This document shows positions 4,444 through 29,222 of a DNA stretch of 32,547 nt, in pieces. The stretch comes from Fidelibacterota bacterium (GTDB taxonomy: Bacteria > Fidelibacterota > Marinisomatia > Marinisomatales > UBA1611). The number at the start of each line of letters is the position of its first letter. Position 1 is the first letter of the stretch. Position numbers and translations under genes: made by a program. The notes beneath the pieces are model-generated. The model searched no databases, was not told the DNA's origin, and was given only the letters and a program-made list of their open reading frames with translations. The stretch spans positions 1-32,547 of the forward strand of contig JAYPLH010000001.1 in NCBI GenBank assembly GCA_038365355.1, read 5' to 3'.

Positions 4444-5514
4444 TTAGAAAGAAACACCAACTGTATACATTTGAACGTTACCTAAAATACCCATAGGTTT
4501 ATACGTGTAATCAATAGAAAGTGATTTATTTGCTAAATAAAACATTTTTGCACCAATACCAAATGTGATGCTAAAGTCATTTCCATCACTATTAATACTT
4601 TTCATACCATTTTTAGCGCCAGAGGTAAGACTCACCTGCCCAAAACCAGGAATTTTATAATCCAAAGCAGCTCCAATATTCACCGATTCAGCATTATTAT
4701 TGGGATGTAATGCATCCGCAGATATAGTAAGGTTCATCATATTTGATACAATTGGCTTTAAAGCAAATCCAATTCTAAAAATCAAAGGTAATTCCCATTC
4801 AGAAGTTCTAAACTGTCCTGCTACATCTCCATAATTACCCTCTTCAAATTCAGAAATATCTATAGGCTGATAGCTATCAATACCATCATATTGCATTCTA
4901 GTGCCATAATTCGATATGCTCATACCTATATTCATTCCGTCTTTATCATTACCCGTAAAAGAAAAAAACTTTGTATTTACTAAAACCCCTAAATCAACAG
5001 CAAAAGCACTTGCGGAGCTATGCCAAATATTAGAGCTTATATATTTCATGGATGAACCAAAAGAAAACCATGAAACAATTTTTCTGGAAAACGTGAAGGT
5101 AGCAGCCATATCAGATGCTCCAAACCTCTCACCAGTTCCATCTTGATATTCCAAATTGGTAACGTCCATCTCTCCATAATCTAAATGAGTAATACCTAGT
5201 CCTAGCACGCCTACATTGGGTACCACTACGGCACCACCTGCAAACAACATGTCAATATCCACCAACCAAGGTTGAACCATGAACAATGCTGAAGAGTTGG
5301 AGACATTTGAAAGTCCAGCAGGATTCCAATATATGGATGAAACATCATTTGCAACAGCCACATATGCATCTCCCATGGAGGTAGCCCGGCTTCCAACACC
5401 TATTTCTAAAAAGTTGGCAGCCGTTGTTCCATAACGATTAATCGTTTGTCCAAATACATTCGAACAAATTAAACTAATCATTATCAAGATAGATTTAGGT
5501 AGGTTAAACATCAT
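4444..5514 (-). CDS. Outer-membrane beta-barrel protein, PorV/PorQ-like
   Basis: 356-aa ORF with signal peptide ending NVFGQ. The N-terminal motif GTTAANFLEIGVGSRATSMGDAYVAVANDVSSIYWNPAGL matches the pattern I associate with PorV/PorQ-family (FadL-superfamily) barrels. It shows an alternating hydrophobic beta-strand pattern and a C-terminal aromatic residue (YTVGVSF). Its start overlaps the upstream stop as ATGA. Confidence 0.55.
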   Translation of the reverse strand: MMFNLPKSILIMISLICSNVFGQTINRYGTTAANFLEIGVGSRATSMGDAYVAVANDVSSIYWNPAGLSNVSNSSALFMVQPWLVDIDMLFAGGAVVVPNVGVLGLGITHLDYGEMDVTNLEYQDGTGERFGASDMAATFTFSRKIVSWFSFGSSMKYISSNIWHSSASAFAVDLGVLVNTKFFSFTGNDKDGMNIGMSISNYGTRMQYDGIDSYQPIDISEFEEGNYGDVAGQFRTSEWELPLIFRIGFALKPIVSNMMNLTISADALHPNNNAESVNIGAALDYKIPGFGQVSLTSGAKNGMKSINSDGNDFSITFGIGAKMFYLANKSLSIDYTYKPMGILGNVQMYTVGVSF

Positions 5515-8500
5515 TTAATTATTGCAAATTTTCCAAGTTTTTCTTCACCAATATCCAAAGCATCTATATGATAAACATACATACCAGCTGCAACTTCTAA
5601 ATTTTCCCTAGTCAACATATCCCAATGAATAATGCCATTACTTGGTTCATTATTAACAATTATTTCATCTACCAAGACACCACTTACAGTAAAGATCTTA
5701 ATAATACAGTTTGCAGGTATGTGAGTAAACATAATTTTTCTACGTTGATTTAAAAAAGGGTTCGAGACGGCTGACTCCATCATATTGGTCATTACATACG
5801 GATTGGGTACAACCCTTATACTATCTAAATCAGATTGAACAATAGATAAATCTAAAGCATTCTCTTGTTCTACAGAAAAACGAATTGTATCTGTAAGAAA
5901 ATAAGGTCTATTATAATCAACTTGATAAGAAGACTCTGATGAAGGGTAATTTGCTCCAGAATCAAGCTGAAAATCCATGATAAATGCTGTTGCTCGCCAC
6001 CTTGATCCCACCGTTGCCCCAACAAAGAACCTATCTACTCCTATATCCACAATATCGTTATCATTTACATCCTGAACAACAACATCCATAATAGGATGTT
6101 GGCCAGTAGAGGTATCTATAAACGACATGTTTTGAACAAAAAAGTTTACTGCTGGTTGAGTTATTTTATTTGAACCAATGGATGTACCATTTTCATCCCT
6201 GATAGTACCTGAACGAGCAATACCGACATATGCAGAATCATCATCCGTAAAGGTTATATTGTATTTCCATGAAAGTTGTAAACCTTCTGTAACCGTAGGA
6301 GTGATTCTCATTGTACCAGCGCCAGTAATCCATCCAGATTTTTCATAATTCAAAGATGAAGCTTCCACCTCTTCGGGCTCGATTTCTAATTGTAATCCAT
6401 CAAAAATATCCGTTAAAATTTCTTCTGAATTGTTTAATACCCAATAATTAGCAGTATCTTTAAAAACTATGTTCTGACCTACATATTTTGACGAATCTTC
6501 AGAATAAATCAGGACAGTACTATCTGTTTCATCAAAAATTTGAATTCCATTAGTTACATATTGGAATCCATAATCATAACCACTTATACTTGCTATTGTA
6601 TCTGCTAGAAAAGTAAGAGCATACTGATGACCTTGTTTTAATGCCCCCTGAGCTCTTATAAGAGGCTCCACAGATCCCGTGCCAAGTAATTCTGTTTCTT
6701 CAATAGTGACTTCAGGTGGAACGTAACCAGCTGCTCTTGGATGAGGAACAACAACTGCTACATTTTTTCCAATAGAGCGAATTTCTTCAGCTTCATCAAG
6801 TTCTATCACCGCATTATTTTCTGAAGGCGCAATTCCTGGACCAATGTTGGGTGCACCAAAATCATATGCCACTACTGCATAATAATACGTTCTACCATTT
6901 TGAACTGTATTATCAACAAAAATATGAGTAATTCCTGTTTCTCCTCCTAAATTGTATCCAGCCCCATTAACTAAGCCAAAATCTGTAAAGCCAGAAATAC
7001 CATCTACTAAATCACATTGATATATAGGCTTTTTAAACATAGGTGTTCCATATCCATCTGTGATAATTTCTGGATCAGACATATATTTATCCGTTGATCG
7101 ATAAACCTTATATCCTTCAAAGTCGTTTATATTTCCAACAAATGGATCCCTAGTTTTTGTGTCTGCGATGTCATCCCATGTTAAAATAACTTTACCATCT
7201 CCAGCAGTTGCAGTTAGTGTAGGCATTTTGGGAGGTTGAGCAAATCGGTAATCTTTTTCGTAAATAACTTGTACAATTCTTTTTAATTCATATAATGCAG
7301 GGGCTGTATGTTCATCCGAGCTCAGCCCTTCTAGTGGATCGTAAGAATGCAATTCAGACATAGATATTCTCTCTACCCTACCTTGATAAAGAGGGAAAGG
7401 CCCTGAAGCAAAAACCTCCACTAAGTTGGATACATTATCAAGATATTCTTCCAAGGAGTCAACACCAATCAGACCCCACATAGCTTCATCGTTTTTAAAC
7501 CAGGTTGTTTCATTAGAAGGGGCATGACTTGGAATTGGAAACATACGAAAAGTAGTTAAACCTACCATATCAGATTCTGAAACATCTGTAGTATTAAAAT
7601 TAGGTTCGCAACCAACACCCTCAAGGAAATCTGGTTTATGGTTACCTTCACTACCATCTAAATCAGGTCCAGTATAATTTAATTCACCAGGAGCAACACC
7701 GTCGATGCCAATATCATCTCCATAATTTTCTGAAATCTGATAAATCCCATCACCATTAGCATCTTCTCCATCTTCCCAATCTTGATCTTCATCTGCATCC
7801 CAATGTTCTTTTAAATCCTCAACATTTAATTTATAAAATTCTAAAAAAGCATTTAAATCATTGATACCATCGGTTGGTCCAATTAAAGCAGTTGCTTCAT
7901 TATCCCTCTTTTCATCAACCAAACCATCATTATCATTATCTTGAAAATCATAGGCTAATCCAGGACTTTCTAAATATGCAAATCCCATTACTCCTGTAGG
8001 AAGTCCGCCGGCTCCCACTCCATTTATATCCCAGGAGTAAGCCATATCCTCTTGCTTATTAAAATAGCCGAGGTCGTCATCACCATCTCCACCAATTGAG
8101 TTATCTAGCCAATATCCAAAAGCGACATCCCTAAGGTCATAATCTGATACATTTGCAATAGAGTATTCCCAAAAAATAGCATCTCTTGCTTGAGGATTAT
8201 TCCATTGAAAACCTCTTACTGAAACACGTAATCCTAATCCTCCCCATGGAGCACCTGGTTGAATCGTCACATCCGGTTTTAAATCTCCAATGTAATGCCC
8301 TGGTCTAGGGTAGTATTTGACATTATCCTCTGATCCAAGATACTCTTGATCCTGAGCATCATTTACCACATAATATGATTCTTGATCAGCGTAAGTAACA
8401 CCCCTGCCAAATCTTCCGTTCCACTCTCCTGGCCATTTGGTAGCAAGTCCTGTTGAAGGCCAACCATTTACTGGCCACGAATTGGGTATGTTTGATAAGG

Positions 8501-8984
8501 CAGGATATTCGCCTGTTTCATCAAAATATCCAAACACTGGGTAGAATCCCCATTCTACAGTTCCAGTAGGATCTAAATCCATCTCTTCACGGTAACTAGT
8601 TTGAAGGTAATATAGTGTATGCCTTTCATTATTTGGATTAAGTAATTCAGGTAATTCCGTAATTGGGATAGTATCGACAGTCGAAGGATCACCATCATCT
8701 TCAATATAAACTTTTGCACCAATTAATAGGCCAATACCATCTGTCATTTTCAAACCATCAGGATTATTAGGCCATTTTGATACATTTACTCTAGGCCAGT
8801 CTGAAAGTTCAGTTGTATTTCTAAAATAGATAAAAACTCTATTTCCTGTCATATACCCCTCTTTTTCAGCAGCAATGTCTCCAGCTGGATCCTCTGGACC
8901 TTCATAAGGTTTACCCTGAGAAAAAATAGTATCTACAAAAAGGGTAAGCAGAAAAAGAAATGTAAAAGTGGTTTTTATATTCAT
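5511..8984 (-). CDS. Large secreted protein of unknown function with Asp-rich Ca-binding-type repeats, FN3-like module and divergent T9SS-type CTD
   Basis: 1157-aa ORF with signal peptide MNIKTTFTFLFLLTLFVDTIFSQ. It has thrombospondin-type-3-like Asp runs (DNDNDGLVDEKRDNE, DADEDQDWEDGEDANGDGIY). It has an FN3-like segment (GDGKVILTWDD...FEGYKVYRS...NGRTYYYAVVAYD). The last ~100 aa are VVPNPY...IKIFTVSGVLV...IHWDMLTRENLEVAAGMYVYHIDA...GKFAIIK. I recognised no catalytic motif. The start overlaps the TonB-dependent receptor stop as TAATG. Confidence 0.7.
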   Translation of the reverse strand: MNIKTTFTFLFLLTLFVDTIFSQGKPYEGPEDPAGDIAAEKEGYMTGNRVFIYFRNTTELSDWPRVNVSKWPNNPDGLKMTDGIGLLIGAKVYIEDDGDPSTVDTIPITELPELLNPNNERHTLYYLQTSYREEMDLDPTGTVEWGFYPVFGYFDETGEYPALSNIPNSWPVNGWPSTGLATKWPGEWNGRFGRGVTYADQESYYVVNDAQDQEYLGSEDNVKYYPRPGHYIGDLKPDVTIQPGAPWGGLGLRVSVRGFQWNNPQARDAIFWEYSIANVSDYDLRDVAFGYWLDNSIGGDGDDDLGYFNKQEDMAYSWDINGVGAGGLPTGVMGFAYLESPGLAYDFQDNDNDGLVDEKRDNEATALIGPTDGINDLNAFLEFYKLNVEDLKEHWDADEDQDWEDGEDANGDGIYQISENYGDDIGIDGVAPGELNYTGPDLDGSEGNHKPDFLEGVGCEPNFNTTDVSESDMVGLTTFRMFPIPSHAPSNETTWFKNDEAMWGLIGVDSLEEYLDNVSNLVEVFASGPFPLYQGRVERISMSELHSYDPLEGLSSDEHTAPALYELKRIVQVIYEKDYRFAQPPKMPTLTATAGDGKVILTWDDIADTKTRDPFVGNINDFEGYKVYRSTDKYMSDPEIITDGYGTPMFKKPIYQCDLVDGISGFTDFGLVNGAGYNLGGETGITHIFVDNTVQNGRTYYYAVVAYDFGAPNIGPGIAPSENNAVIELDEAEEIRSIGKNVAVVVPHPRAAGYVPPEVTIEETELLGTGSVEPLIRAQGALKQGHQYALTFLADTIASISGYDYGFQYVTNGIQIFDETDSTVLIYSEDSSKYVGQNIVFKDTANYWVLNNSEEILTDIFDGLQLEIEPEEVEASSLNYEKSGWITGAGTMRITPTVTEGLQLSWKYNITFTDDDSAYVGIARSGTIRDENGTSIGSNKITQPAVNFFVQNMSFIDTSTGQHPIMDVVVQDVNDNDIVDIGVDRFFVGATVGSRWRATAFIMDFQLDSGANYPSSESSYQVDYNRPYFLTDTIRFSVEQENALDLSIVQSDLDSIRVVPNPYVMTNMMESAVSNPFLNQRRKIMFTHIPANCIIKIFTVSGVLVDEIIVNNEPSNGIIHWDMLTRENLEVAAGMYVYHIDALDIGEEKLGKFAIIK

Positions 8985-15533: not shown

Positions 15534-16523
15534 GTGCGTACAACATTAAAACAAGTAGCAGACGATACTGGATTATCCATTGCCACAGTTTCTAGGGCTC
15601 TACGCCGAGATAAGAGAAGATATTCCAAAAATGAAGAGAAAATCTATGCTTCAGCTAGGAAATTAGGATATCCTTTTATTGGAGAACTGAACAATGAAGA
15701 GCAATTAACAATCGCTCTTGTCACAGAAGTACATCAGGGTGAGTTTTACTCGTCTTTATTTAACGGCTTTTACAATTCAAGTAAAAACTCTGAGTCCGAT
15801 ATTGTTTTTGTAAATCTTGCAAAACATAGCGATGATCCTGTTCAGCATATTATAAATCTCAGTAAAAAATACAGTGGAATATGTCTTTTCTTACCTAATT
15901 TAGAAAAAATTGACTACAAACGAATACGGCAAGGAGTTGGGAAATATCCAATTATTTCTCTTACGCCAATGAAAAACCCTACTATTGATACGGTCTCATT
16001 TGACTCTTACAGCGGTGGATATATGATTGCAAAACACTTTGAAGAGCAAGGATATAAAAATTTTGGTATTGTTTCCGGTCCTGGAGATGCTGTAGATGCA
16101 GTTTTCCGTAAGAATGGTTTCGTAGACCACATCAGTGAAAAAGAAGATTTAAAACTTGTCTGGGAATATAAGGGTGATTTTAGCAGTGAATCTGGAAGAG
16201 ATGCCTTTAATGACTATAAAAAGAAAAACATTCCTAACATGGCAATTTTTGGATGCAATGACCACACTTGTTTTGGCTTTATGAAGGGAGCCTTAGAAGC
16301 AGGTTACAAAATTCCTAAAGATTTTATAATTGCTGGTTACGATAATCTATCCTTTTGTGACAATTTTACTCCAGAGCTGACTTCCGTTGCAACCAACTTT
16401 GACATCCTAGGGAAAAGAGCAATCCGAACGATTGAAAACATGGTAAACGATAGTAATGAAATAATTCGACAATTTTCAATGGTCCCTGTTGAAATAGTTA
16501 TCAGATCCAGCACACAGAACTAG
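15534..16523 (+). CDS. LacI-family transcriptional regulator
   Basis: 329-aa ORF with a GTG start. The N-terminal HTH is TLKQVADDTGLSIATVSRALRR. The periplasmic-binding-protein-like sugar-sensor core includes GYKNFGIVSGP, AIFGCNDHTCFG and IIAGYDN. Confidence 0.9.
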   Translation: MRTTLKQVADDTGLSIATVSRALRRDKRRYSKNEEKIYASARKLGYPFIGELNNEEQLTIALVTEVHQGEFYSSLFNGFYNSSKNSESDIVFVNLAKHSDDPVQHIINLSKKYSGICLFLPNLEKIDYKRIRQGVGKYPIISLTPMKNPTIDTVSFDSYSGGYMIAKHFEEQGYKNFGIVSGPGDAVDAVFRKNGFVDHISEKEDLKLVWEYKGDFSSESGRDAFNDYKKKNIPNMAIFGCNDHTCFGFMKGALEAGYKIPKDFIIAGYDNLSFCDNFTPELTSVATNFDILGKRAIRTIENMVNDSNEIIRQFSMVPVEIVIRSSTQN

Positions 16524-16544: not shown

Positions 16545-17840
16545 TTGTTCCAGTACTCAACCAGAGCTCTTTCTTCTATCTGCATATTACTACTTTTTTG
16601 TTCATGCTCTACAAAAACAATTTCCAATGATGGAGACTGGGAACTTGTTTGGCAGGATGAATTCGAAGGTGACAAACTGGACAGATCAAATTGGACTTTT
16701 GATCTAGGAACAGGGGCACCATCTTTCAAAGAGTATGGGCAGAGTTCGCCATATTTTGTACCTGAAAATTTTCCAAGCGATAATTTTTCAGTTCGCTGGG
16801 AAGGAGAAATTAAAATAGACTTTAACACCGAGTATACTTTCTACCTTATTTCTGATGATGGAGTAAGGCTATATGTCAATAACAATGTAATAATTGATAG
16901 CTGGAAACCTCAACCTGCAACAGAAAAACAAGGTGTGATCAAGCTTCAAAAAAATAAAAAATATACTATACAGATTGAGTATTTTGAACAGACTGGTGGA
17001 GAAGCAATAGTTCTTGGATGGGAAAGTGAAAAATTCTCAAAAAGATTAGTACCCAGCTCACATCTATCTACACCCGATGGAAAACCAGGACTTCAGGGAA
17101 CATACTTTAAAAACAGGGAACTGAAACAAACAACCACGGATCCTCCTTTAGTTAGAATAGATAAAGAAATCAACTGGGTTACCGGAGGAGGATGGGGTAA
17201 TAATGAATCTCAATACTATACAGATAGAGCCCAAAATGTTAGAATTGTAGATGGAAAGTTAATCATTGAATCTCACAAAGAGGCCTACAGAGGATCTAAT
17301 TATACCAGTTCACGAATTAAAACAAAAAACAGTTGGAAGTACGGAAGATTTGAAATTAAAGCAAAATTACCACCTGGAAGAGGAACATGGAGCGCCCTTT
17401 GGGCTTTACCTACGGATTGGGAATATGGGAACTGGCCGCTAAGCGGGGAAATTGATATTATGGAGCACGTTGGTTATGATGAAGATATCATTGTAACAAG
17501 CCTTCATAACGCTGCTCTCTCTGCTGGGAAAATTGGCGGAACAGACCAACACGGATATATCGAGCAACCAAATGCTTGTAAAGAATTCAACACGTACACT
17601 CTGGAATGGAGCGAACAAGAGATTAAAATCTTTGTTAATGATAAAATTTCATTACAATATCCAAAACAAGATAAAAATTGGGCAAAATGGCCATTTGATA
17701 AAAGATTTCACTTGCTTTTTAACATTGCAGTAGGCGGTAATTGGGGAGGGGAAAAAGGCATAGATGATAACGCATTCCCATCTAAAATGGAAATAGACTA
17801 TGTTAGAGTTTATTCTAACATAGGAAACAGAGAATCTTAA
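16545..17840 (+). CDS. Lipoprotein GH16 laminarinase (beta-bulge type) with a PA14 domain inserted in an N-terminal loop
   Basis: 431-aa ORF. The only plausible start is TTG at 16545, because an in-frame TAA lies at 16536-16538. The lipobox-like signal is ILLLFCSC. The GH16 start is WELVWQDEFEGDKLDRSNWTFDLGTG, and the domain resumes at GGGWGNNESQYYTDR. The catalytic motif is GEIDIMEHVG (E302, D304, E307; nt 17448-17465). The PA14 hallmarks between the two parts are NFSVRWEGEI, YTFYLISDDGVRLYVNN and YTIQIEYFE. Confidence 0.85.
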   Translation: MFQYSTRALSSICILLLFCSCSTKTISNDGDWELVWQDEFEGDKLDRSNWTFDLGTGAPSFKEYGQSSPYFVPENFPSDNFSVRWEGEIKIDFNTEYTFYLISDDGVRLYVNNNVIIDSWKPQPATEKQGVIKLQKNKKYTIQIEYFEQTGGEAIVLGWESEKFSKRLVPSSHLSTPDGKPGLQGTYFKNRELKQTTTDPPLVRIDKEINWVTGGGWGNNESQYYTDRAQNVRIVDGKLIIESHKEAYRGSNYTSSRIKTKNSWKYGRFEIKAKLPPGRGTWSALWALPTDWEYGNWPLSGEIDIMEHVGYDEDIIVTSLHNAALSAGKIGGTDQHGYIEQPNACKEFNTYTLEWSEQEIKIFVNDKISLQYPKQDKNWAKWPFDKRFHLLFNIAVGGNWGGEKGIDDNAFPSKMEIDYVRVYSNIGNRES

Positions 17841-17843
17841 AAA

Positions 17844-19490
17844 ATGAAAAAAATCATATCCATATTTTTTATCCTAGCAGTCTATTTCTTTGCCTCTTGT
17901 GAGAATAAAACAAACCGAGATCTAGAAGGTCTGATTGTATATCAAGAAAATCAAATTTCCTGGACTCGAAATTTTGAACCATTGAATCCAGTTTCAATAT
18001 GTAGATGGCCTACTAGAGGAGGCATTTACGAGCCTCTATACATTTACAATCCTATCAGCACTGAATGGGTTCCCTGGCTAGCAACAAACTATGAATGGAA
18101 AAACGACAATAGAAAGCTATTATTTTCTATACGAACAGGTGTTAAATGGTCTGACGGGAGAGAATTTAGTGCCTATGACGTAGCATATACTTTAAACTTA
18201 TGGAAACAATTTCCAGCCTTGGATACCCGTAATGCATGGGATTATCTGCAAAATGTTGTTGCAATTTCAGATACATTAGTAGAAGTTGACTTCAAAAGGG
18301 TTTACGTCCCAGGTTTTGAAGCTATTGCAGGGGCCTATATTGTACCAAAACATATATGGAGTAAACTTGATGATCCCCTTAAGTTTGATAACCCTGACCC
18401 TGTTGGAACCGGCCCGTATACAGAAGTATTACGTTTTAACAGCCAAGTATGGGAACTTGGGAAAAATCATAATTATTGGCAAAAAGGAAAACCTCACGTA
18501 GAAAAATTAATTTTCCCCACATTTTCAACTAACGAACAAACAACTCTTGCGCTTCTAAGCGGAAATCTGGACTGGGCAGGAGCGTTTATTCCTGCTATAC
18601 AACGAATCTTTGTTGACAAAAATCCTGAGCACCATCATTACTGGTTTCGAAATACTGGATACTCTACATTTTTACATACCAATACGAAAGACCCTATTTT
18701 ACAAGATACAAATGTGCGAAAAGCAATAAGCTATGCAATAAACCGAGAGCAAGTAGTCAAAGTTGGAATGTATAACTATACCTCTCCTGCCCATGTAACA
18801 AGCCTAGCAGGACCAATGGCTAAATGGCATTCACCAAAAATTAATGAAAAAGAAAATTGGACTGCTTTTAACCTAGAAAAAGCTAATGAGCTACTTGATG
18901 ATGCAGGATATAAGTGGAAAAACAAAAACGAAAGAATAGATTCAAATGGGTCACCATTAAAGTTCAATATAATCGTAGTATCTGGATGGAGCGATTGGGT
19001 TCGATCTGCTCAAGTCATTAGTCAGAACTTAAAGAAAGTCGGAATTCAAGCAACCGTAAGGACCTATGACTTTGGAGCTTGGATTGCTAGGATGCAACAA
19101 GGAAACTTTCAAATGGCTGTTGGATGGGCTGATAAAGGCGCTACCCCTTATAACTTTTTTAAATCAATGATGTTTTCAGAATATGTAAAACCATTAGGAG
19201 AAACTGCTGATATTAATTGGCACAGATTTGGAATTAAAGAAGCAGATTTTTTGATCAAGGAGTTTGAACAAACATCAGATGAAAATAAAATAAAAAATAT
19301 CATTTACAAATTACAACACTTGTTTATAGAACACGCACCTGGTATTCCCCTATTTGCTGAACTTAGTTGGGCAGAATGCAATTCAAAATATTTTACCAAT
19401 TTTCCAAGCGCAGAGAACCCTTATGGACCATTGTCTGTAAATGAACAACCTAGCTTTATTTTTACTTTGTTAAATATTAAAAAAAGATGA
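17844..19490 (+). CDS. ABC transporter substrate-binding lipoprotein, family 5 (Opp/Dpp type), probably oligosaccharide-binding by context
   Basis: 548-aa ORF with lipobox FFASC. Its length and conserved blocks are typical of family-5 binding proteins (WSDGREFSAYDVAYT, VGTGPY, NHNYWQKGKP). It is followed by matching DppB/DppC-type permeases. The sugar specificity is inferred from the flanking glycoside hydrolases. Confidence 0.8.
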   Translation: MKKIISIFFILAVYFFASCENKTNRDLEGLIVYQENQISWTRNFEPLNPVSICRWPTRGGIYEPLYIYNPISTEWVPWLATNYEWKNDNRKLLFSIRTGVKWSDGREFSAYDVAYTLNLWKQFPALDTRNAWDYLQNVVAISDTLVEVDFKRVYVPGFEAIAGAYIVPKHIWSKLDDPLKFDNPDPVGTGPYTEVLRFNSQVWELGKNHNYWQKGKPHVEKLIFPTFSTNEQTTLALLSGNLDWAGAFIPAIQRIFVDKNPEHHHYWFRNTGYSTFLHTNTKDPILQDTNVRKAISYAINREQVVKVGMYNYTSPAHVTSLAGPMAKWHSPKINEKENWTAFNLEKANELLDDAGYKWKNKNERIDSNGSPLKFNIIVVSGWSDWVRSAQVISQNLKKVGIQATVRTYDFGAWIARMQQGNFQMAVGWADKGATPYNFFKSMMFSEYVKPLGETADINWHRFGIKEADFLIKEFEQTSDENKIKNIIYKLQHLFIEHAPGIPLFAELSWAECNSKYFTNFPSAENPYGPLSVNEQPSFIFTLLNIKKR

Positions 19491-20473
19491 ATAAATCCAT
19501 ATTATACATTGCAAGACGATTCGGTTTCTATCTTATAGCTGCATTTGCTGCATTAACTTTAAACTTTATTATTCCAAGATTAATGCCAGGAGACCCAGCT
19601 TCCATTATTTTTGCACGCTTCAAAGGGAAGTTAAAACCAGAAGCGATAGATGCTATGCGAGAAAGCTTTGGTCTAACCAACGATCCAATTATCACTCAAT
19701 ATGCTTCATATTTAAAGGGCATCCTTCAAGGGGACTTGGGAATTTCAATTGCCTATTTTCCTGAACCTGTTTCTGAAATCATTGGAGGCGGTCTCATTTG
19801 GACAATATTTTTAGCAGGAAGCTCTATGGTAATTGCATTCCTAATTGGAACAACTCTAGGTGTCATAATTGCTTGGAATAGAACAGGAAAATTGGATACC
19901 ATTTTACCACCCGCATTAGCATTCTTTGGAGCATTCCCCTATTTCTGGTTAGCAATGGTTGTTCTTTATATTTTTGGTTTTTCTATGAACTGGTTTCCTA
20001 TTGGTCGCGCCTTTGGAAATGAGGTTAATCCAGGATTAAACACACCTTATTTACTGAGCGTCTTATATCATGCTTTTCTACCAGCCTTAACTCTAGTTTT
20101 TGTGAGCCTAGGAGGTTGGATGCTATCCATGCGAAATACTATGATCAGTACTCTGGGTTCAGATTATATTACTTTTGCAAATGCAAAAGGCATCCCATCT
20201 CGATTAATTATGCTTCGTTATGCTGCACGAAATGCTATTCTACCAAACCTAACAGGATTTGGTATGGCTTTGGGTTTTATGTTAAGTGGAGCACTTTTAA
20301 CAGAAATGATTTTTTCTTATCCAGGCCAAGGGTTTCTACTTTTACAGGCTGTACAAAGTCAGGATTATCCTCTTATGCAGGGAATTTTCATGACAATTAC
20401 GCTTGCAGTACTTGGTGCAAACTGGCTAGTGGACATTGCGATTTTGTTTTTTGACCCTAGAACAAGAAGATGA
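19487..20473 (+). CDS. ABC transporter permease (DppB/OppB type)
   Basis: 328-aa ORF with a typical N-terminus (IARRFGFYLIAAFAALTLNFIIPRLMPGDP). It has multiple TM segments and an EAA-like loop (DYITFANAKGIPSRLIMLRYAARNA). The ATGA overlaps with both neighbours. Confidence 0.9.
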   Translation: MNKSILYIARRFGFYLIAAFAALTLNFIIPRLMPGDPASIIFARFKGKLKPEAIDAMRESFGLTNDPIITQYASYLKGILQGDLGISIAYFPEPVSEIIGGGLIWTIFLAGSSMVIAFLIGTTLGVIIAWNRTGKLDTILPPALAFFGAFPYFWLAMVVLYIFGFSMNWFPIGRAFGNEVNPGLNTPYLLSVLYHAFLPALTLVFVSLGGWMLSMRNTMISTLGSDYITFANAKGIPSRLIMLRYAARNAILPNLTGFGMALGFMLSGALLTEMIFSYPGQGFLLLQAVQSQDYPLMQGIFMTITLAVLGANWLVDIAILFFDPRTRR

Positions 20474-21411
20474 ATAATAAAAACAATCTGCAACAAAATA
20501 GTATCTTTACTCGATGGGTTTCTGGAATTATTGAGAATCAAAAAGCATTTAGCGGAAGCTGCATCATCTTATTTTTTGCTTTAGTGGCAATCTTTGTACC
20601 ATTCTTTATTAATTCCCCTACGGATTTTCTTGGTACTCCGCTTTCTCCTCCATCCTTTGAGTACATTTTTGGAACAAATGGTCAAGGACAAGATGTATTC
20701 GCACAAACGATATGCGGAGCAAGGCAGACGCTTTTTGTCGGATTTAGTGCAGGCATTCTTGTTGTAATAATTGGTGCATTAATTGGAGGAATTGCTGGAT
20801 TTTACGGTGGAAGAATAGATGATATCTTGTCTTTATTAATTAATGTTTTCTTAGTAATGCCGGGACTTCCTCTTATGGTAATCCTTGCTAGCTGGCTACC
20901 ACCAACACCTGGAACTTTGCTAGGAGTTTTAGTGCTCACAGGCTGGGCATGGAACGCACGTATCATAAGATCTCAAATGATGACGTTTAGAAATCGAGAT
21001 TTTGTCTCTGCTGCCATCATTAGCGGAGAATCAAATATTCGAATAATTGTTGTCGAAATTATGCCCAGGATGCTTTCTTTACTTGCATCTGCATTTATTG
21101 GAGCATCCATTTACGCTATTGGAGCACAGGTAGGCCTTGAGTTTTTGGGACTAGGGGATATCAGTACTGTCACATGGGGAACAAATCTCTATTGGGCAAG
21201 TAATGATCTTGCACTACTTACAGAATCTTGGTGGACATTTGTGCCTACTGGCCTAAGCATTGCGATCGTCAGTTTTGCCCTTACATTAATTAATTTTGGC
21301 ATTGATGAAGTATCCAACCCTCGACTTATTTCAGAACGCATATGGCGCAACAAGGTTCCAAAAGAGCTAATTAACCATGGAATAACTCCCGTAACTAGTC
21401 AAAATGAATAA
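20470..21411 (+). CDS. ABC transporter permease (DppC/OppC type)
   Basis: 313-aa ORF. It has an OppC-type N-terminal TM segment followed by GTNGQGQDVF. Further TM segments and RNRDFVSAAIISGESNIRII are present. Confidence 0.9.
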   Translation: MNNKNNLQQNSIFTRWVSGIIENQKAFSGSCIILFFALVAIFVPFFINSPTDFLGTPLSPPSFEYIFGTNGQGQDVFAQTICGARQTLFVGFSAGILVVIIGALIGGIAGFYGGRIDDILSLLINVFLVMPGLPLMVILASWLPPTPGTLLGVLVLTGWAWNARIIRSQMMTFRNRDFVSAAIISGESNIRIIVVEIMPRMLSLLASAFIGASIYAIGAQVGLEFLGLGDISTVTWGTNLYWASNDLALLTESWWTFVPTGLSIAIVSFALTLINFGIDEVSNPRLISERIWRNKVPKELINHGITPVTSQNE

Positions 21412-23077
21412 TCCTATTATTTCAGTAAACAACCTATCTGTTGAATACGTTACAGGCATAAAATCTGTTCAAGCTGTGCATAACGTTTCATTTGAGATTA
21501 ATTCAGGAGAAATCTTTGGTCTAGTTGGAGAATCTGGAAGCGGGAAGAGTACAGTAGTGCAAGCAATGATGCGAATACTCCCCCCTCCTGCGCTCATTAG
21601 CAAAGGAAATGTATTTATTAACAATGAAGATATCATGGCTGCTTCAGAAGCCGATATTATCAATTTTCGATGGAAAAAAATCTCCATTGTTATGCAAAGC
21701 GCTCTCAATGCTTTAAACCCTGTTTTATCTGTACGTGAACAAATCCATGATGTCCTAAAAATACATAAAGGTTTAATCGGAATAGAAGCAGATAACCGAG
21801 CCAAAGAATTATTGTCTCTTGTCGATATAGAGTATAATCGATTAGACAGTTTCCCTCATCAATTATCTGGAGGAATGAAACAACGTATTGTTATTGCGAT
21901 TGCTCTTGCAATTATGCCTCCAATAATTATTATGGATGAGCCTACAACCGCACTAGACGTAATCGTGGAACGTGAAATTATATCAAAAGTTATTGAGCTA
22001 AGGAAAAAATTAGATTTTACAATTTTGTTTATCACTCATGATTTAAACTTACTATTAGAATTTGCTGATAGGTTGGCAATAATGAAAGATGGGGAGGTCG
22101 TTGAATTGGATGAAGTTAAAAATATTCAAAAAGGCGGAAAACATCCTTATACCAAAAAATTAATTGGATCCATACCATCTGCATCTGGAGTTCGACAAAA
22201 GGGACTTCTAACAAAACCAGATAAATTAACCTTTCCAAAGGATCCTATTTTAGAAGTTAAAGACCTTGAGAAAGTATTTCAATCTTCAAATATTTTCAAT
22301 AAACAAAAATTAATAGCTGTAAATGGAGTGTCTTTTAAAATTTTTAAAGGAGAAATTATTGGTCTTGTTGGAGAATCAGGAAGTGGTAAAAGTACCATAG
22401 CAAAATTGGTAACACGCTTAATGAGGCCATCTGCGGGATCTATTTACCTTAATGGTCAAAACAAAAAAGTTACCGAATCTAGAAATGTCCCACTTGAATA
22501 TCGTAAAACGGTTCAAATGGTTTTTCAGGATCCATTTGGGTCCCTCAATTCTATTCATACCGTATACCATCATTTAGCAAGACCTTTATTTAGACATAAA
22601 TTAAAAGATCAAACAGAAATGTTTCCGTATATCGTTCATTTATTAGAAAAGGTTGGTCTTACTCCTGGAGATAAATTTGCGAAAAAATTTCCTCACGAAA
22701 TGTCTGGAGGAGAAAGACAACGGGTTGCAATTGCAAGGGCTTTAAGCTTAGATCCTCAGATTATAGTAGCAGATGAACCCACTTCAATGTTAGATGTTTC
22801 CATAAGAATGGATGTGCTTGAAATTTTTGCAAAAATGCGAAAAGAAAATAATTTAACTGTTCTGTTTATTACTCACGATCTAGCCTCTGCTCGATATTTG
22901 GCAGATAGAATAATTGTATTGAAAAATGGAGCCATTGTAGAAGAAAACGCCTCTGAAAAGCTAATACAAAGCCCAAAAAAAGAGTATACAAAACAACTAG
23001 TTACAGCAGCATCACCTGGTTGGCTAAGTAGTCTTGGAGAAAATTTTGAAAAAAAGGAAGAGTATAATGACCAATAA
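21404..23077 (+). CDS. Fused double ABC ATPase (DppD-DppF type)
   Basis: 557-aa ORF with two full nucleotide-binding domains. Walker A is GESGSGKST twice. The signatures are LSGGMKQR and MSGGERQR. Walker B is IIIMDEPTTALD and IIVADEPTSMLD. Confidence 0.92.
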   Translation: MNNPIISVNNLSVEYVTGIKSVQAVHNVSFEINSGEIFGLVGESGSGKSTVVQAMMRILPPPALISKGNVFINNEDIMAASEADIINFRWKKISIVMQSALNALNPVLSVREQIHDVLKIHKGLIGIEADNRAKELLSLVDIEYNRLDSFPHQLSGGMKQRIVIAIALAIMPPIIIMDEPTTALDVIVEREIISKVIELRKKLDFTILFITHDLNLLLEFADRLAIMKDGEVVELDEVKNIQKGGKHPYTKKLIGSIPSASGVRQKGLLTKPDKLTFPKDPILEVKDLEKVFQSSNIFNKQKLIAVNGVSFKIFKGEIIGLVGESGSGKSTIAKLVTRLMRPSAGSIYLNGQNKKVTESRNVPLEYRKTVQMVFQDPFGSLNSIHTVYHHLARPLFRHKLKDQTEMFPYIVHLLEKVGLTPGDKFAKKFPHEMSGGERQRVAIARALSLDPQIIVADEPTSMLDVSIRMDVLEIFAKMRKENNLTVLFITHDLASARYLADRIIVLKNGAIVEENASEKLIQSPKKEYTKQLVTAASPGWLSSLGENFEKKEEYNDQ

Positions 23078-24425
23078 TAAATTTCCAAAAGATTTTTTTT
23101 GGGGTACTGCAACCTCAAGTTACCAAATAGAGGGTGCTCCAGATGCAGATGGTAAAGGTCTTTCTGTTTGGGATACTTTTAGCCATAAAAAAGATACTAT
23201 AAAAAATGGAGACACTGGGGATGTTGCTTGTGATCATTATCATCTTTGGCCAAAAGATTTAGATCTCTTAGAAAATCTAGGAGTAAACTCATATAGGTTT
23301 TCAATTAGCTGGCCTAGGATTCTTCCAACAGGCAAAGAAAACAAGCCTAACCAAGCTGGATTGGACTTTTATAGCCGATTAGTAGACAACCTTCTTGAAA
23401 GAGGGATAACTCCTTTTCTTACTCTAAACCATTGGGATATTCCACAAGGTTTAGAGAATGAAGGCGGATGGACGGAAAGAATGATGGTTGATGCATTTGT
23501 AAAGTATAGCTACCACACTAGTAAACATCTTGGAGATAGAGTTAAGCATTGGATTACTCATAATGAACCGTGGTGTGTAAGTCATATTGGATATGTTGCT
23601 GGTCATAAACCACCTGGTCTTAAAAATGATTGGCCTAAAAGCCTGTCTGCTGCTCATCATCTACTTCTTTCCCATGGTATGGCTATTCCAGAAATCAGAA
23701 ATAATGTACAAGATGAAAAAGTAGGAATAACATTAAACTTGAATACTGCAATACCCGCATCTCCTAGTGAACATGATAAAAAAGCCTGCGACTTTTTTGA
23801 TAATATGTTTAATCGACTCTTTTTAGAACCTCTTTACAATAGAAAATACCCACTAGAACTTTTTGATGAACTTAAAAAACGAAAAAATATTACCGATAAA
23901 GATTTAAACTTTATCAAAGACAATGACCTTGAAATCATCGCCCAAAAAACAGACTTTTTAGGTGTCAATTATTACAGCCGAGGTGTAATTAGAAATGAAG
24001 AAATTAGTGAGGAAGAAAATTTACCTAAAAACATAGAAATGGGTCCGGAGACTGATTTTGGATGGGAAGTATACCCCCCTGGTCTATATGATCTACTCAT
24101 AAAACTAAAAAAAGAGTATAACGTGGAAAAGATTTTTATTACAGAAAATGGATGCTCATACTCAGATGGTCCAAATGAAGAAAATAAAATCAATGATCAA
24201 AGAAGAATAGATTATCATCATACCCATTTGATTGAAATACAAAAAGCTATCCATGATGGCGTGGACTGTAAAGGGTATTTTGCATGGTCATTAATGGATA
24301 ACTTTGAGTGGGCACAGGGATTCAGCCAAAGGTTTGGACTAGTTTGGGTTGATTTTGAATCATTAGATCGTATTCCAAAAGAAAGTTATCATTGGTATAA
24401 AAATTATATTTCAAACAATAAATAA
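23067..24425 (+). CDS. GH1 beta-glucosidase, cytoplasmic
   Basis: The family start is FPKDFFWGTATSSYQIEGA, the acid/base is ITHNEPW and the nucleophile is ITENG. There is no signal peptide. I place the start at the internal ATG 23067 (MTNNKFPKDFFWG), which is preceded by AGGAAG and overlaps the ATPase stop by 11 nt. The track start at 23034 seems less likely. Confidence 0.9.
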   Translation: MTNNKFPKDFFWGTATSSYQIEGAPDADGKGLSVWDTFSHKKDTIKNGDTGDVACDHYHLWPKDLDLLENLGVNSYRFSISWPRILPTGKENKPNQAGLDFYSRLVDNLLERGITPFLTLNHWDIPQGLENEGGWTERMMVDAFVKYSYHTSKHLGDRVKHWITHNEPWCVSHIGYVAGHKPPGLKNDWPKSLSAAHHLLLSHGMAIPEIRNNVQDEKVGITLNLNTAIPASPSEHDKKACDFFDNMFNRLFLEPLYNRKYPLELFDELKKRKNITDKDLNFIKDNDLEIIAQKTDFLGVNYYSRGVIRNEEISEEENLPKNIEMGPETDFGWEVYPPGLYDLLIKLKKEYNVEKIFITENGCSYSDGPNEENKINDQRRIDYHHTHLIEIQKAIHDGVDCKGYFAWSLMDNFEWAQGFSQRFGLVWVDFESLDRIPKESYHWYKNYISNNK

Positions 24426-24437
24426 GAGAAGATTCGA

Positions 24438-25781
24438 ATGAATTCACCTGAAAATACATCCATCTATTTAACCTCTAAAGATTCAAATCACAGACTTGAA
24501 AAAATTTCGGCAAGTGAAATATCAACGGTTTCAAAAACAGAGTTACAGTCTATTCGTCTGCACAAAAAAAATATTCGGCAAAGCATATTAGGTTTTGGAG
24601 GTGCTTTTACGGAAGCATCTGCAAGTATTTATGATCAGCTTGATAAAAATAAAAAAAATAAAGTTATTGAAGCATACTTCGGTAAAAGTGGGAATCAGTA
24701 CAATATGGGCAGAACTCACATAAACAGTTGCGATTTTTCATTGGGAAACTATGCTCTTTGCGAAACTGAAGATCGAGAATTAACAGACTTTTCTATTCAA
24801 AGAGATAAAAAGATGCTCATCCCATTTATCAAATCAGCTCTTGAAAAAGCATCTACTCCTATTCATATTATGGCCTCTCCTTGGAGCCCACCTCCATGGA
24901 TGAAAACAAATAATCAAATGAATCACGGTGGAAAGCTCAAAGAAGAGTATCGGGGTACTTGGGCTGAATATTATTGTAAATACATAAAATTTTACGAAGA
25001 AGATGGTGTTCCTATATGGGGAATCTCTGTACAAAATGAACCCGAAGCAGTACAGACGTGGGACTCATGTGTATACTCAGGAGAAGAAGAGCGAGATTTT
25101 ATAAAGAATTTTTTAGGTCCTGCTTTAGAAAAAAATAAATATCTTGATAAAAAACTTGTAATATGGGATCATAACCGAGACGTAATGGTCAGACGATCGA
25201 GAGCGGTGTTGTCAGACCCTGATGCTGCAAAATACGTATGGGGTACTGGTTTTCACTGGTATAATGGTGATCATTTTGACGAGGTCCAAAAGGTGCATGA
25301 TGAATTCCCCGACAAAAAATTAATATTTACAGAGGGTTGCCAAGAGGAAGGGCCACATCTTGGTTCGTGGGATTTAGGAGAAAGATATGCAACTTCTATT
25401 ATACATGATCTCAATAGATGGACAGTAGCCTGGATTGATTGGAACCTATTACTAGATGAAAACGGTGGACCAAATCATGTTGGCAATTATTGCAGTGCAC
25501 CTATAATAGTTGATACCAAGACCCAGGAATTACTTTTCCAAAGCTCTTATTATTACTTAGGTCATTTTTCTAGATTTTTTAGTAGAGGAGATAAAATTAT
25601 TAAAAGTGAGAATAATACCAACACACTTCTTGCACTTTCTGCTATTGATAAAAATCAAAAAATAACTACAACAATTATGAATAAAGAGGAAAATAGCGTA
25701 CCATTTTTATATGAAAATGGTTCAAGCTCTAAACCCTTTTCAATACCCCCTAGATCTATTATTACCATAATAAGCCAATAA
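24438..25781 (+). CDS. GH30 glycosidase (glucosylceramidase / beta-1,6-glucosidase-like), apparently cytoplasmic
   Basis: 447-aa ORF with GFGGAFTEASA and SPWSPPPWMKTN. The acid/base context is ISVQNEPE and the nucleophile context is IFTEGC. The hydrophilic N-terminus MNSPENTSIYLTSKDSNHR has no signal peptide. Confidence 0.85.
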   Translation: MNSPENTSIYLTSKDSNHRLEKISASEISTVSKTELQSIRLHKKNIRQSILGFGGAFTEASASIYDQLDKNKKNKVIEAYFGKSGNQYNMGRTHINSCDFSLGNYALCETEDRELTDFSIQRDKKMLIPFIKSALEKASTPIHIMASPWSPPPWMKTNNQMNHGGKLKEEYRGTWAEYYCKYIKFYEEDGVPIWGISVQNEPEAVQTWDSCVYSGEEERDFIKNFLGPALEKNKYLDKKLVIWDHNRDVMVRRSRAVLSDPDAAKYVWGTGFHWYNGDHFDEVQKVHDEFPDKKLIFTEGCQEEGPHLGSWDLGERYATSIIHDLNRWTVAWIDWNLLLDENGGPNHVGNYCSAPIIVDTKTQELLFQSSYYYLGHFSRFFSRGDKIIKSENNTNTLLALSAIDKNQKITTTIMNKEENSVPFLYENGSSSKPFSIPPRSIITIISQ

Positions 25782-25799
25782 AAAAAACGAACTATATAA

Positions 25800-28700
25800 A
25801 TGAAAGATAATCTGTACAAAATATCAAATTTCAAAGATATTGATCCTTTTCTCATGTCGATTACAAGTGCTGACAATCACTGGATGTATATTAGTAGCTC
25901 AGGATGTTTAAGTGCTGGAAGACAAAAAGCTGAGCATGCTCTGTTCCCTTATGTGACAGATGATTTGTTACATAAAAATGCACATTTTACGGGTCCAATA
26001 ACATGTATTTCTATTGATAAAGATAATAAAAAGTATTCTTGGCAACCTTTTTCAAATCAAATCGATAATTACAAAAAGAATCAGAATCTTTATAAAAATA
26101 GTTTAGGTAATAAAATAGTCTTTGAAGAAATCAATCATACTATCGGACTCACATTTCTCTATAGCTGGCAGGCATCTGCAAGATATGGTTTTGTTAAAAA
26201 AACTAAATTATTAAATCATAGTGGTAAAAAATTAAATATTAAGCTAGTTGATGGTTTAAGAAACATCTTACCTGCTGGAGTAAGTTTGAGAACACAGCAG
26301 GAGATGAGCAACCTGGCAAATGCATATAAAGTATCCGAATGTAATTCAGATTATAATTATGCTTTATATTATATGAACGCATTACTAATGGACAAACCAG
26401 ACCCTGGAGAATCGCTGTTTTCAAATATAGTTTGGTCACACTCTAGTGATAATATTGAACTTTCAGTGAATGAAAAATCAATTAGTACATTTTTGTCTAG
26501 TAATGAATTTGAGAAAGACCACTTACTAAAAGGTAAAGAAGGTAGCTTTTTAAACTTCATTCAAAAACCATTACCCTCTGATCAAGAAATGACCTGGTAT
26601 ATCATTGCAGATGTACAAAAATCTCAGTCTGACATTAGTTCAATTATTTCAGATTTAAAGGACAGTGATTCCATTGAAAAGAAACTAGAAAAAAGTTTAG
26701 CAGATAATTACAGTGCATTTGAAAAAAATATTGGAATGGCTGATGGATTCCAATGTACAGAGTTAGAAATAAATGATTTACATCATACAGCAAATGTTAC
26801 ATACAATGTTTTAAGGGGCGGAGTGTTTTTTGATAACTACAAGATACAAAAAAATAGCTTTGTATTATTTTTACAGAAGAGAAGTAAGAAGACATTTGAA
26901 GCTTATCAAACTAACATTAACCAACTCCCCGATTCTTTTAATATTAAAGATCTTTTAGAATTTGGTGACAAATTAAATAAACCTTCTATACGAAGGCTTT
27001 GCCGAGAATACCTTCCCCTTACGCTAGGAAGAAGACACGGAGACCCTAGCAGGCCATGGAATCATTTTAATATTCTAACAAAGGATATAAATGGTGACCC
27101 AGTACTTTATTTTGAAGGAAATTGGAGAGATATTTTTCAAAACTGGGAAGCACTAGGACTTAGTTATCCTAACTCATGGGAATCAATGGTGTCTATATTT
27201 TTAAATGCAACATCTGCTGATGGCTATAATCCATACAGAATCACAAGCTATGGCATTGATTGGGAAATTATAGAGCCTGATGATTCTTGGAGTCATATTG
27301 GATACTGGAACGACCATCAAATTATATATCTTTTAAAGTTACTAGAACATTTAAACGCTACTTACCCAGAAAGAATAGAGGAATTATTTAACGATGCAAT
27401 TTTTAGTTATGCAAATATTCCGTACAAAATAAAAAAGTTTAAAAAAATAGCTGAAAACCCTAAAGAAACAATTGACTTTGATTTTGAAAACCACAATAAA
27501 ATCTTGAACTTAGTTAATGAATTAGGATCTGATGGTAGATTACTGCTGAATAAGGACAAAGATGTTTACCACGTAACCTTATGTGAAAAACTTCTCGTTT
27601 TATCTCTAGCAAAAATTTGTAATTATGTTCCAGGAGCAGGAATATGGCTCAATACCCAACGACCTGAGTGGAATGATGCAAACAATGCATTAGTTGGAAA
27701 TGGATGCTCAATGGTAACTGTATATTACCTCAAAAGATTTCTTAACTTTTTCAAAGAGATTATCTCACAAATTAAAACAAAAAATATTAATATTTCTTCA
27801 GAAGTATTATTTTGGTTCCATGAAGTAGATGCAGAAATAACCAAAAATAAACATAAAAGCCATACTCTATTCTCCGATAAAGAGAGGATGAATTATGTAT
27901 CTGGCTTAGGAGAAATATTTGAAAATTATCGGGAGAAAATATACTCTTCAGGATTTAGCACTTTTGAGCAATTATCTTTAAATAAACTAGAAAGTTTTCT
28001 TTCAAAAATCTGTAGTCAATTTAATGAGACTATCTTCGACAATCGTAAGGATAATGGATTATTTGATGCTTATAACACAATAAATATTGATTCTAAAAAT
28101 CAGTCCATTGATATAAAAAAACTAGACCTTATGCTCGAGGGTCAAGTTGCTGGACTAAGCTGCGAATCACAAAAACCGTATAGCACTACTTCAACCCTGA
28201 AGTCACTTTTTTCCAGCAACCTGTACCGTGCTGATATGAAAAGTTTTATTTTATATCCTGAAAAAAAGATTACTCCTTTCTTAAATAAAAATATTATTGA
28301 CCCAGACCATCTTAAAAAGAGTATTTTATTAAGAAAAATGGTGGACCAAAAAAACACATCAATTGTAGAGCAGGATTCCGATGGGAATTTTCGTTTTAAC
28401 CCTAAATTTCGAAATATATTTGATTTAATTAATGCACTAAAACAATTACCAAAATCAGAAATTGAGGATATACCATTTGAAAAAGAATTAGAACATATTT
28501 CCAATATTTATGAACTTGTTTTTAATCATAGAAATTTTACAGGAAGATCTGGAACAATGTTTTCTTATGAAGGCATTGGATCAATATATTGGCATATGGT
28601 CTCAAAATTACTTTTAGCAACCCAAGAAAACTTCTTTTTAGCAAAAAACAATAATTCTTTTGAAAGAAATAATGTCCAAAGCCTTGGAAGATATTACTAT

Positions 28701-29207: not shown

Positions 29208-29222
29208 ATTGGAACGCCCAAT

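Follow-up and report, generated by a model that had tools for sequence, protein, structure and literature searches.

The gene at positions 16545-17840 (plus strand) of a Fidelibacterota contig, which encodes a predicted laminarinase of family GH16, raises the question what sequence interrupts its catalytic domain and how a complete second domain can be accommodated within a tight loop of the first. The window, i.e. the whole stretch of DNA that was analyzed, comprises 32,547 nucleotides (contig JAYPLH010000001.1 of GenBank assembly GCA_038365355.1). The original prediction, made from the DNA letters, was that a PA14 domain at 16716-17183 is nested in GH16 with its N-terminal block placed behind its C-terminal block. 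We conclude, with a probability of about 0.78, that the gene encodes a GH16 endo-β-1,3-glucanase carrying one complete, circularly permuted PA14 domain at the tip of the β2-β3 loop, captured as a unit of a PA14 array and serving as a built-in glucan-binding or gating module. The gene and protein, here called GH16-PA14, consist of the following parts.

16545-17840, plus strand: whole gene for a predicted 431-residue GH16 laminarinase with nested PA14; TTG start, stop codon at 17838-17840 (list of open reading frames and translation).
16545-16607, plus strand: putative signal peptide with a lipoprotein-like box (…LLLFCS-C21), read from the sequence.
16635-16715, plus strand: GH16 N-terminal strands, residues 31-57 (DWELVWQDEF…NWTFDLGTG), aligned to 3ILN residues 4-29 and to ULam111 as far as Gly30.
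16716-17072, plus strand: PA14 part 1, residues 58-176, with the AP hinge, the rest of the β2-β3 connection and strands β3-β10 (Pfam PA14 positions 39-145; canonical-unit profile positions 29-138).
17073-17087, plus strand: linker, residues 177-181 (PDGKP), aligned to the inter-domain linker of 6QE7.
17088-17177, plus strand: PA14 part 2, residues 182-211 (GLQGTYFKN…RIDKEINW), the predicted canonical strands β1-β2 moved to the C-terminal end of the insert (profile positions 2-27/29; start of the second PA14 of 6QE7).
17178-17837, plus strand: rest of GH16, residues 212-431, from VTGG-GWGNNE and including the catalytic motif, aligned to 3ILN residues 28-248.
17448-17465, plus strand: GH16 catalytic motif E302-I-D304-I-M-E307, read from the sequence.

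In a Pfam scan the protein scored 81.7 bits with PF00722 (GH16, cutoff 22), and a search of solved structures gave a match to 3ILN, a Rhodothermus laminarinase, with E = 2.4e-67 and 48% identity. The E-x-D-x-x-E motif of the β-jelly roll is present and intact (E302-x-D304-x-x-E307). The enzyme can be classified from these matches as a predicted laminarinase-type, GH16_3-like endo-β-1,3-glucanase. The predicted hydrolysis of β-1,3-glucan is supported by the presence of GH30, GH1 and a GH149 β-1,3-oligosaccharide phosphorylase in the same locus. Homologues begin at the same position, with Met-Phe. The N-terminus is hydrophobic and ends in …FCS-C21, where Cys21 corresponds to the family consensus 'SC', and the enzyme is a putative lipoprotein.

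Alignment with 3ILN resolved the GH16 domain into two blocks, residues 31-55 matching 3ILN residues 4-29 and residues 212-424 matching residues 28-248 (E = 1.4e-66 for the second block). Removal of residues 58-211 in silico gave a single unbroken GH16 alignment with 3ILN residues 5-248 (245.7 bits), and the same construct aligned without gaps over the junction with ULam111, a Flavobacterium laminarinase. Because the domain is split and is restored by deletion of these residues, the insert was placed at residues 58-211 (nucleotides 16716-17177), with the GH16 break between G57 and V212. The predicted interruption of GH16 was therefore found within the open reading frame and its end was off by no more than two residues; all motifs quoted in the prediction occur in the translation of 16545-17840 (plus strand). 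The arrangement is a nested-domain architecture, the host GH16 forming one continuous sequence when the insert is taken out. The likeness of the two boundary motifs, NWTFDLGTG and INWVTGGG, which had also been pointed out, is not a repeat. Their origin as a duplication scar was considered and rejected, the first being a GH16 strand followed by the GTGAP hinge and the second the end of PA14 β2 followed by the TGG hinge.

In the gapless alignment with ULam111, G57 pairs with Gly30, V212 with Cys31, G214 with Asn33, G215 with Cys34, and G218/N219 with Gly37/Asn38. The β2-β3 loop of ULam111, with its Cys31-Cys34 bridge, lies above the substrate-binding site; Asn33 is in contact with the subsite -3 sugar, and substrate binding also involves Gly37 and Asn38 (PMC5595797). 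The equivalent 'kink' loop of Thermotoga and Pyrococcus laminarinases is located at the cleft entrance and influences substrate preference (PMC12296878). On account of these correspondences and the published roles of the loop, the PA14 domain is seen to be grafted on the tip of a specificity-relevant GH16 loop, β2-β3, on the negative-subsite (non-reducing) side.

The assignment of the insert to PA14, also part of the original prediction, is borne out by PF07691, which scored 80.2 bits (cutoff 24, E = 1.8e-22) with model positions 39-145 of 147 aligned to residues 74-171. Among solved structures, the insert is closest to the tandem PA14 dyad of RsgI3, an anti-sigma factor of Clostridium thermocellum (6QE7, E = 1.6e-44). 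Residues 74-211 are colinear with residues 39-178 of the 6QE7 chain in an alignment that leaves the first PA14 domain, crosses the linker and takes in strands 1 and 2 of the second. In this alignment GLSAEYYGDAELK…RIDDAINF of the dyad pairs with GLQGTYFKNRELK…RIDKEINW of the insert. Residues 182-211 are homologous to the N-terminal β1-β2 part of PA14, with a similarity far beyond chance, and the five residues before them join the canonical C-terminus to the canonical N-terminus, their counterpart being the inter-repeat linker of tandem PA14 arrays. A search with the insert over 1.84 billion representatives returned 20,610 PA14 relatives, and the top matches were proteins with arrays of several PA14 domains. 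In roughly 40% of the 149 best representative matches the best stretch was colinear to the end of the insert, which is possible only if the alignment crosses a repeat junction. The canonical phase was checked in the nearest relatives. A GLxGxYY motif occurs upstream of the core, at a median distance of 35 residues, in 177 of 256 first-in-array units, and only 13 of 255 last-in-array units are followed by it.

Because the Pfam PA14 profile failed to reach its N-terminal 38 positions, a hidden Markov model (HMM) of the closer family was built from 200 canonical-phase PA14 units of the nearest relatives (139 positions) and scored on four sequences. On the native protein, positions 29-138 of this canonical-unit model aligned to residues 64-176 with 120.8 bits and positions 2-29 to residues 182-217 with 14.4 bits (E about 6e-6 in the four-sequence test). 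When the insert was artificially re-ordered, one match over positions 2-138 was obtained with 146.6 bits, and a doubled insert gave a full-length match over the junction (142.3 bits). The insert holds every PA14 part exactly once, from the 'dWGsGsP' β2-β3 connection to the 'vnf' end of β2, and the canonical strand order, with β1-β2 first and β10 last, does not occur in it. The same order, core followed by N-terminal part, was found in 108 of 146 proteins scanned, a set that includes 14 GH16 proteins without PA14; another 20 had only the core above threshold or were fragments, 16 of the 146 had no PA14 match, and the canonical PA14 order was found in none. Together, the 6QE7 alignment, the canonical-unit HMM and the 108 family proteins bear out the proposed reversal of the two blocks. 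The profile comparison suggested at the outset came out as expected in substance: the GH16 match is split and the N-terminal part of PA14 follows the C-terminal part with the closer-family HMM, although model positions 1-38 of Pfam PA14 stayed unaligned throughout. The insert thus has the sequence pattern of a circularly permuted PA14 domain, in which all elements are present once, cyclically shifted, and the old termini are joined by residues 177-181.

Structure prediction with AlphaFold2 gave a full-length model (alignment of 57 family sequences) with a mean predicted local distance difference test score (pLDDT) of 87.6 and a predicted template modeling score (pTM) of 0.72. The PA14 region was confident, with block means of 96, 87 and 94 over residues 181-210 and strands at 183-188, 202-206 and 210-212 (pLDDT 87-96). 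Modeling of the insert alone (residues 54-216, alignment of 32 sequences) gave a pLDDT of 91.5 and a pTM of 0.87, which indicates that the insert would form one compact domain. The top Foldseek matches of this model in the PDB were all PA14 structures (6QE7, 6QDI, 5J6Y, 3AC0, 7KMP and the anthrax protective antigen), and the predicted fold is a PA14 β-sandwich. Single PA14 domains, including those of MpAFP (5J6Y), KmBglI (3AC0) and Xac1773 (7KMP), superposed over about 96-105 columns at 2.0-2.6 Å, while the RsgI dyads aligned over 140-147 columns with a root mean square deviation (rmsd) of 10-12 Å, the two pieces falling in different domains of the dyad. Such a combination of short single-domain superpositions and a long, high-rmsd dyad alignment would be expected for a permutant. 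No PDB structure was matched by Foldseek over the whole insert at low rmsd, and therefore no PDB entry seems to have this connectivity. The full-length model matched only GH16 structures in the PDB; for 3ILN the rmsd was 1.7 Å at 48% identity, with a target-normalized TM score of 0.80.

Conservation was analyzed over 57 aligned family members, and residues were mapped to RsgI3 by means of the 6QE7 alignment. The GH16 catalytic residues E302, D304 and E307 are invariant. The Ca2+ ligands of RsgI3 are D61/T62, D86/D87 and Q130 (PMC6852018). PA14 part 1 bears the pair D79/N80, corresponding to D61/T62, in which D79 is present in 52 of the 57 sequences, and the invariant D104-D105-G106, whose aspartates correspond to D86/D87. 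It also bears the E148…G151…E153 loop, in which the invariant E148 takes the place of Q130. The insert accordingly appears to keep its predicted Ca2+/sugar-binding residues. In the displaced N-terminal part, G182, D206 and N210 are invariant, and L183, G185, Y187, R204 and W211 occur in 56 of the 57 sequences. The hinges G55-T-G-A-P59 and T213-G-G are nearly invariant and look rigid rather than floppy. Mean pairwise identity is 56% for the PA14 core, 51% for the PA14 N-terminal part and 66% for the C-terminal part of GH16; linker residues 177-181 are the least conserved stretch, with 35%. The PA14 module appears to be under purifying selection.

These data bear on the alternative that the insert is a truncated PA14 domain lacking β1-β2, followed by what is left of a second PA14, whose sole role would now be that of a linker to GH16. 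Such a composition would agree with a Pfam alignment confined to positions 39-145, with the weak score of the N-terminal part alone (14 bits) and with a nearest solved relative that is a dyad holding the two halves in different domains. However, between them the two pieces fill the canonical profile exactly once, without gap or overlap, residues 182-211 are predicted as strands with pLDDT values of 87-96, and the pTM of the insert alone is high. Furthermore, it is the stretch with the (near-)invariant G182, L183, G185, Y187, R204, D206, N210 and W211 that would have to be the linker, whereas variability is highest in the true linker, and the loss of strands 1 and 2 would leave the core of a PA14 sheet exposed. 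We consider the two-fragment composition very improbable. The view of the original prediction that the insert is one complete domain rather than two incomplete ones agrees with the HMM positions, 29-138 and then 2-29, each used once, and with the insert-only model.

A database search for the architecture, as had been proposed, identified about 100 clusters of proteins of 400-456 residues with the same architecture and 52-86% identity. Those with a named source are proteins of metagenome-assembled genomes of Candidatus Marinimicrobia or Neomarinimicrobiota, and most members of the family are metagenomic. The next-best matches were ordinary GH16 proteins without insert, with 52-57% identity over the GH16 part. 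Existing databases tag the GH16-PA14 proteins with both Pfam domains. In a genome scan of 185,579 species, each represented by one genome, 25 were found to have the insert together with its two junctions; nearly all of these are Marinimicrobia. Two short contigs binned elsewhere, JAKUOQ010000093.1 (L008, 5 kb, Nitrospinales) and JAURBD010000155.1 (L021, 2.2 kb, Flavobacteriaceae), carry a LacI gene followed by GH16-PA14 with 54-65% identity; they are likely mis-binned rather than transferred. At the other 52 PA14 loci retrieved (L026-L077) no GH16 gene was found nearby. The distribution also addresses the concern that the gene is an assembly or gene-calling artifact, the contig being chimeric or two genes having been fused, which might be raised since the source organism is uncultured and most relatives come from metagenomes. 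The same uninterrupted open reading frame recurs in over 100 protein clusters and in the 25 independent species genomes, with the same neighbors, and both junctions lie within one reading frame and are conserved. The probability of an artifact is negligible in our estimate, and an assembly artifact was rejected on the basis of this recurrence in many independent assemblies.

PA14 domains inserted in a catalytic domain are known from GH3 β-glucosidases, i.e. KmBglI of Kluyveromyces marxianus and an enzyme of Streptomyces venezuelae (PMC4444583, PMC5104943), and from the GH31 α-xylosidase Xyl31A of Cellvibrio japonicus (PMC4444583). In KmBglI (PDB 3AC0/3ABZ), which was matched by the insert in Foldseek, the PA14 domain is likewise nested in a hydrolase loop and not appended. 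The match covers only about 98 columns at 2.5 Å, consistent with canonical order there and a permuted one here. The host folds differ as well, an (α/β)6 sandwich in GH3 and a β-jelly roll in GH16, as do the taxa, which for GH3 are a yeast and an actinomycete. According to Yoshida et al. (2010) the PA14 domain of KmBglI reportedly shapes substrate-length preference. The GH31 enzymes Xyl31A (2XVG) and Xac1773 of Xanthomonas (7KMP) also hold PA14 within the hydrolase domain and were matched by both sequence and fold, but they belong to another catalytic family, and only the colinear PA14 core, 93-96 columns, is aligned. The closest solved PA14 sequences are the RsgI3 and RsgI4 dyads (6QE7, 6QDI), with 37-38% identity and common Ca2+-ligand positions. 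Colinearity with the insert extends over the C-terminal three-quarters of their PA14-A, across the linker and as far as the second strand of PA14-B. In contrast to the insert, the dyads are free-standing sensor modules of canonical order, in which the corresponding pieces belong to two domains rather than to a predicted single one.

The laminarinases ULam111 (5WUT), TmLam (3AZX), PfLamA (2VY0) and LamR (3ILN) share with GH16-PA14 the catalytic domain, the motif and the loop position. In ULam111, TmLam and PfLamA the 'bulging' or 'kink' loop has 4-10 residues (e.g. C31-P-N-C34), whereas a folded domain of 154 residues occupies this place here. Rotated strand orders in β-sandwiches have been described before. 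The GH16 lichenase of Fibrobacter succinogenes is a natural circular permutant. The pair CBM36/CBM60 is another case of natural circular permutation, as far as it is described where Montanier et al. (2010) is cited (PMC6852018, PMC4444583). These proteins have other folds, however, and are free-standing or terminal and not nested. Jermuk-LamM, the only characterized GH16 laminarinase from Marinimicrobia (Fidelibacterota), comes from the same phylum as GH16-PA14 and is a lipoprotein-type GH16 endo-1,3-β-glucanase, as is predicted for GH16-PA14; it has 287 residues and neither a carbohydrate-binding domain nor a loop insertion (PMC12296878). In the library that could be searched, no paper was found on PA14 in GH16 or laminarinases or in connection with laminarin, and none on a permuted PA14. 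What is new is the topology, nesting combined with permutation, and its rationale; the parts were already known.

The neighboring genes on the plus strand are the following.

15534-16523, plus strand: LacI-family regulator, immediately 5' of GH16-PA14 (Pfam).
17844-23077, plus strand: ATP-binding cassette (ABC) importer, directly 3' of GH16-PA14, with a family-5 solute-binding lipoprotein, two permeases and a fused ATPase (Pfam; conserved synteny).
23034-31049, plus strand: downstream enzymes GH1 β-glucosidase, GH30, GH149 and GH5 (Pfam; match to 6HQ6; N-termini).
25800-29207, plus strand: GH149 β-1,3-oligosaccharide phosphorylase of 1135 residues, without a Pfam match and matching 6HQ6 with E = 3e-300 over residues 5-1127.

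In related loci the LacI regulator precedes GH16-PA14 wherever the upstream sequence is long enough, and the family-5 binding lipoprotein, two permeases and fused ATPase follow. The exception is a rearranged locus in two species (L004 and L020), in which GH16-PA14 is directly followed by GH1, GH30 and GH149 with no ABC transporter genes between them. The ABC binding protein and GH16-PA14 have lipoprotein-like N-termini. GH1, GH30 and GH149 lack a signal peptide, whereas the hydrophobic N-terminus of GH5 may represent one. The listed TTG start of the GH1 reading frame (23034-24425, plus strand) overlaps the ABC ATPase gene by 44 nucleotides; the true start is probably later, because homology begins at about residue 14 and there is an internal Met (…SIMTNNKFPKDFFWG). 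Since GH149 is present, the locus joins hydrolytic and phosphorolytic laminarin breakdown.

The minus strand upstream of GH16-PA14 bears genes for a TonB-dependent receptor, a PorV-like protein and a CBM9 protein equipped with a type IX secretion signal, and also for two GH16 enzymes. These two further GH16 genes (128-2987, minus strand) encode type IX secretion C-terminal domains, and one of them also a malectin domain; in both, the match to the GH16 profile sets in at position 28-29, right behind the signal peptide, and their GH16 subtype differs from that of the PA14-bearing enzyme. Between the TonB-dependent receptor and the PorV-like gene lies a gene for a secreted protein of 1157 residues (5511-8984, minus strand) with no Pfam match and no sequence match in the PDB, which could be a SusD-like or surface glycan-binding partner. 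A lipoprotein-like open reading frame of 488 residues (…FLSC…; 2968-4434, minus strand) overlaps its neighbors by a few codons and also has no Pfam match. At the edge of the window, the reading frame at 31171-32517 (minus strand) has β-helix, NosD-like and lamin-tail domains and no obvious tie to the glucan locus. Its N-terminus may extend past the window, as the GTG start is 30 bases from the end and the β-helix match begins at profile position 55.

The permuted order suggests how the domain could have come to lie in the loop. The insert equals a single period of a tandem PA14 repeat exactly, out of phase and with the inter-repeat linker included, and capture of such a phase-shifted unit from a PA14 array would be the most economical origin. 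The chain would enter at the former β2-β3 connection, run through β3-β10, the short linker and β1-β2, and return to GH16. The new termini are expected to be close in space because they derive from adjacent positions of the canonical profile (27 and 29), which in a canonical domain form a short direct connection, and with adjacent termini the module fits a tight hairpin loop.

In function, the PA14 domain is probably a built-in glucan-binding or gating module that would tune which β-1,3-glucan chains are cut, or how. Within the locus, the secreted GH16 enzymes would make the initial extracellular cuts and the TonB-dependent receptor would import the fragments. The putative lipoprotein GH16-PA14 would then trim these to oligosaccharides fit for the ABC importer, and GH149, GH1 and GH30 would complete their breakdown in the cytoplasm. 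All loops of the PA14 core have 2-6 residues and the strands should therefore alternate, placing D79, D104/D105 and E148 at one pole, and W211 at the end of β2 together with the chain entry at the other. With this geometry the ligand of the module may be a branch, the non-reducing end or a stretch of the chain farther away.

The same geometry is compatible with another role, in which PA14, like any carbohydrate-binding module appended to an enzyme, is a generic targeting module that holds the enzyme on laminarin or particles and its loop position has no effect on catalysis or product size. PA14 modules bind sugars via the Ca2+ site (PMC6852018), the residues of this site are conserved in the insert, and the reasoning from strand directions would set the binding pole away from the GH16 attachment. 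Yet the near-invariance of both hinges (GTGAP and TGG) points to a fixed arrangement and not to a floppy tether, the insertion loop is known to influence substrate recognition in GH16 laminarinases, and in evolution a module would have been added more easily at a terminus. We regard a pure targeting role as plausible, though less likely than not. A more specific version of the glucan-binding role is that permutation enabled the nesting by bringing both PA14 ends to one pole, and that the rigidly hinged PA14 is a Ca2+-dependent clamp for the non-reducing end or β-1,6 branches of laminarin, making the endo-laminarinase a 'ruler' that sizes oligosaccharides for the ABC importer and GH149. This proposal is speculative and, taken as a whole, distinctly unlikely to be correct.

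Several points weigh against a complete permuted PA14 module that was captured from an array and acts on the substrate. With the Pfam PA14 profile, the re-ordered insert still aligned over positions 39-145 only (79 bits), so that the first 38 positions were matched in neither the native nor the re-ordered form, and the 46-residue N-terminal part alone gave no Pfam match. A phmmer search with the 30-residue N-terminal part alone against tandem-PA14 proteins gave no domain below E = 0.01. The placement of β1-β2 in their canonical positions is a prediction drawn from confidence scores, secondary structure and homology, and the pTM of the full-length model leaves the orientation of PA14 relative to GH16 uncertain. 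Located opposite the tether, the predicted Ca2+/sugar site may face away from the cleft, and the case for PA14 as a simple 'lid' or 'extra subsite' is weaker for it. An intermediate, i.e. a GH16 with tandem or canonical-order PA14, was not found; the best 150 matches of the insert, mostly arrays, could reveal neither one nor any other GH16-PA14 architecture, and only one representative of the GH16-PA14 family was among them.

The permuted and nested PA14 domain would be a natural case in which permutation by a phase-shifted repeat unit is combined with insertion into a tight loop of another domain, and it offers an explanation of how a module with ends unsuited to nesting can become insertable. 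For the enzymology of GH16 laminarinases, it places a predicted sugar-binding module on a loop known to affect substrate recognition. In the sea, laminarin is one of the major pools of carbon. Marinimicrobia (SAR406), in which the enzyme is conserved, are a marine group that is widespread but has been little characterized, and they carry it in a complete locus for β-1,3-glucan uptake and phosphorolysis. If the 'ruler' clamp were true, it would represent a lineage-specific route of laminarin use in the abundant oceanic SAR406/Marinimicrobia.

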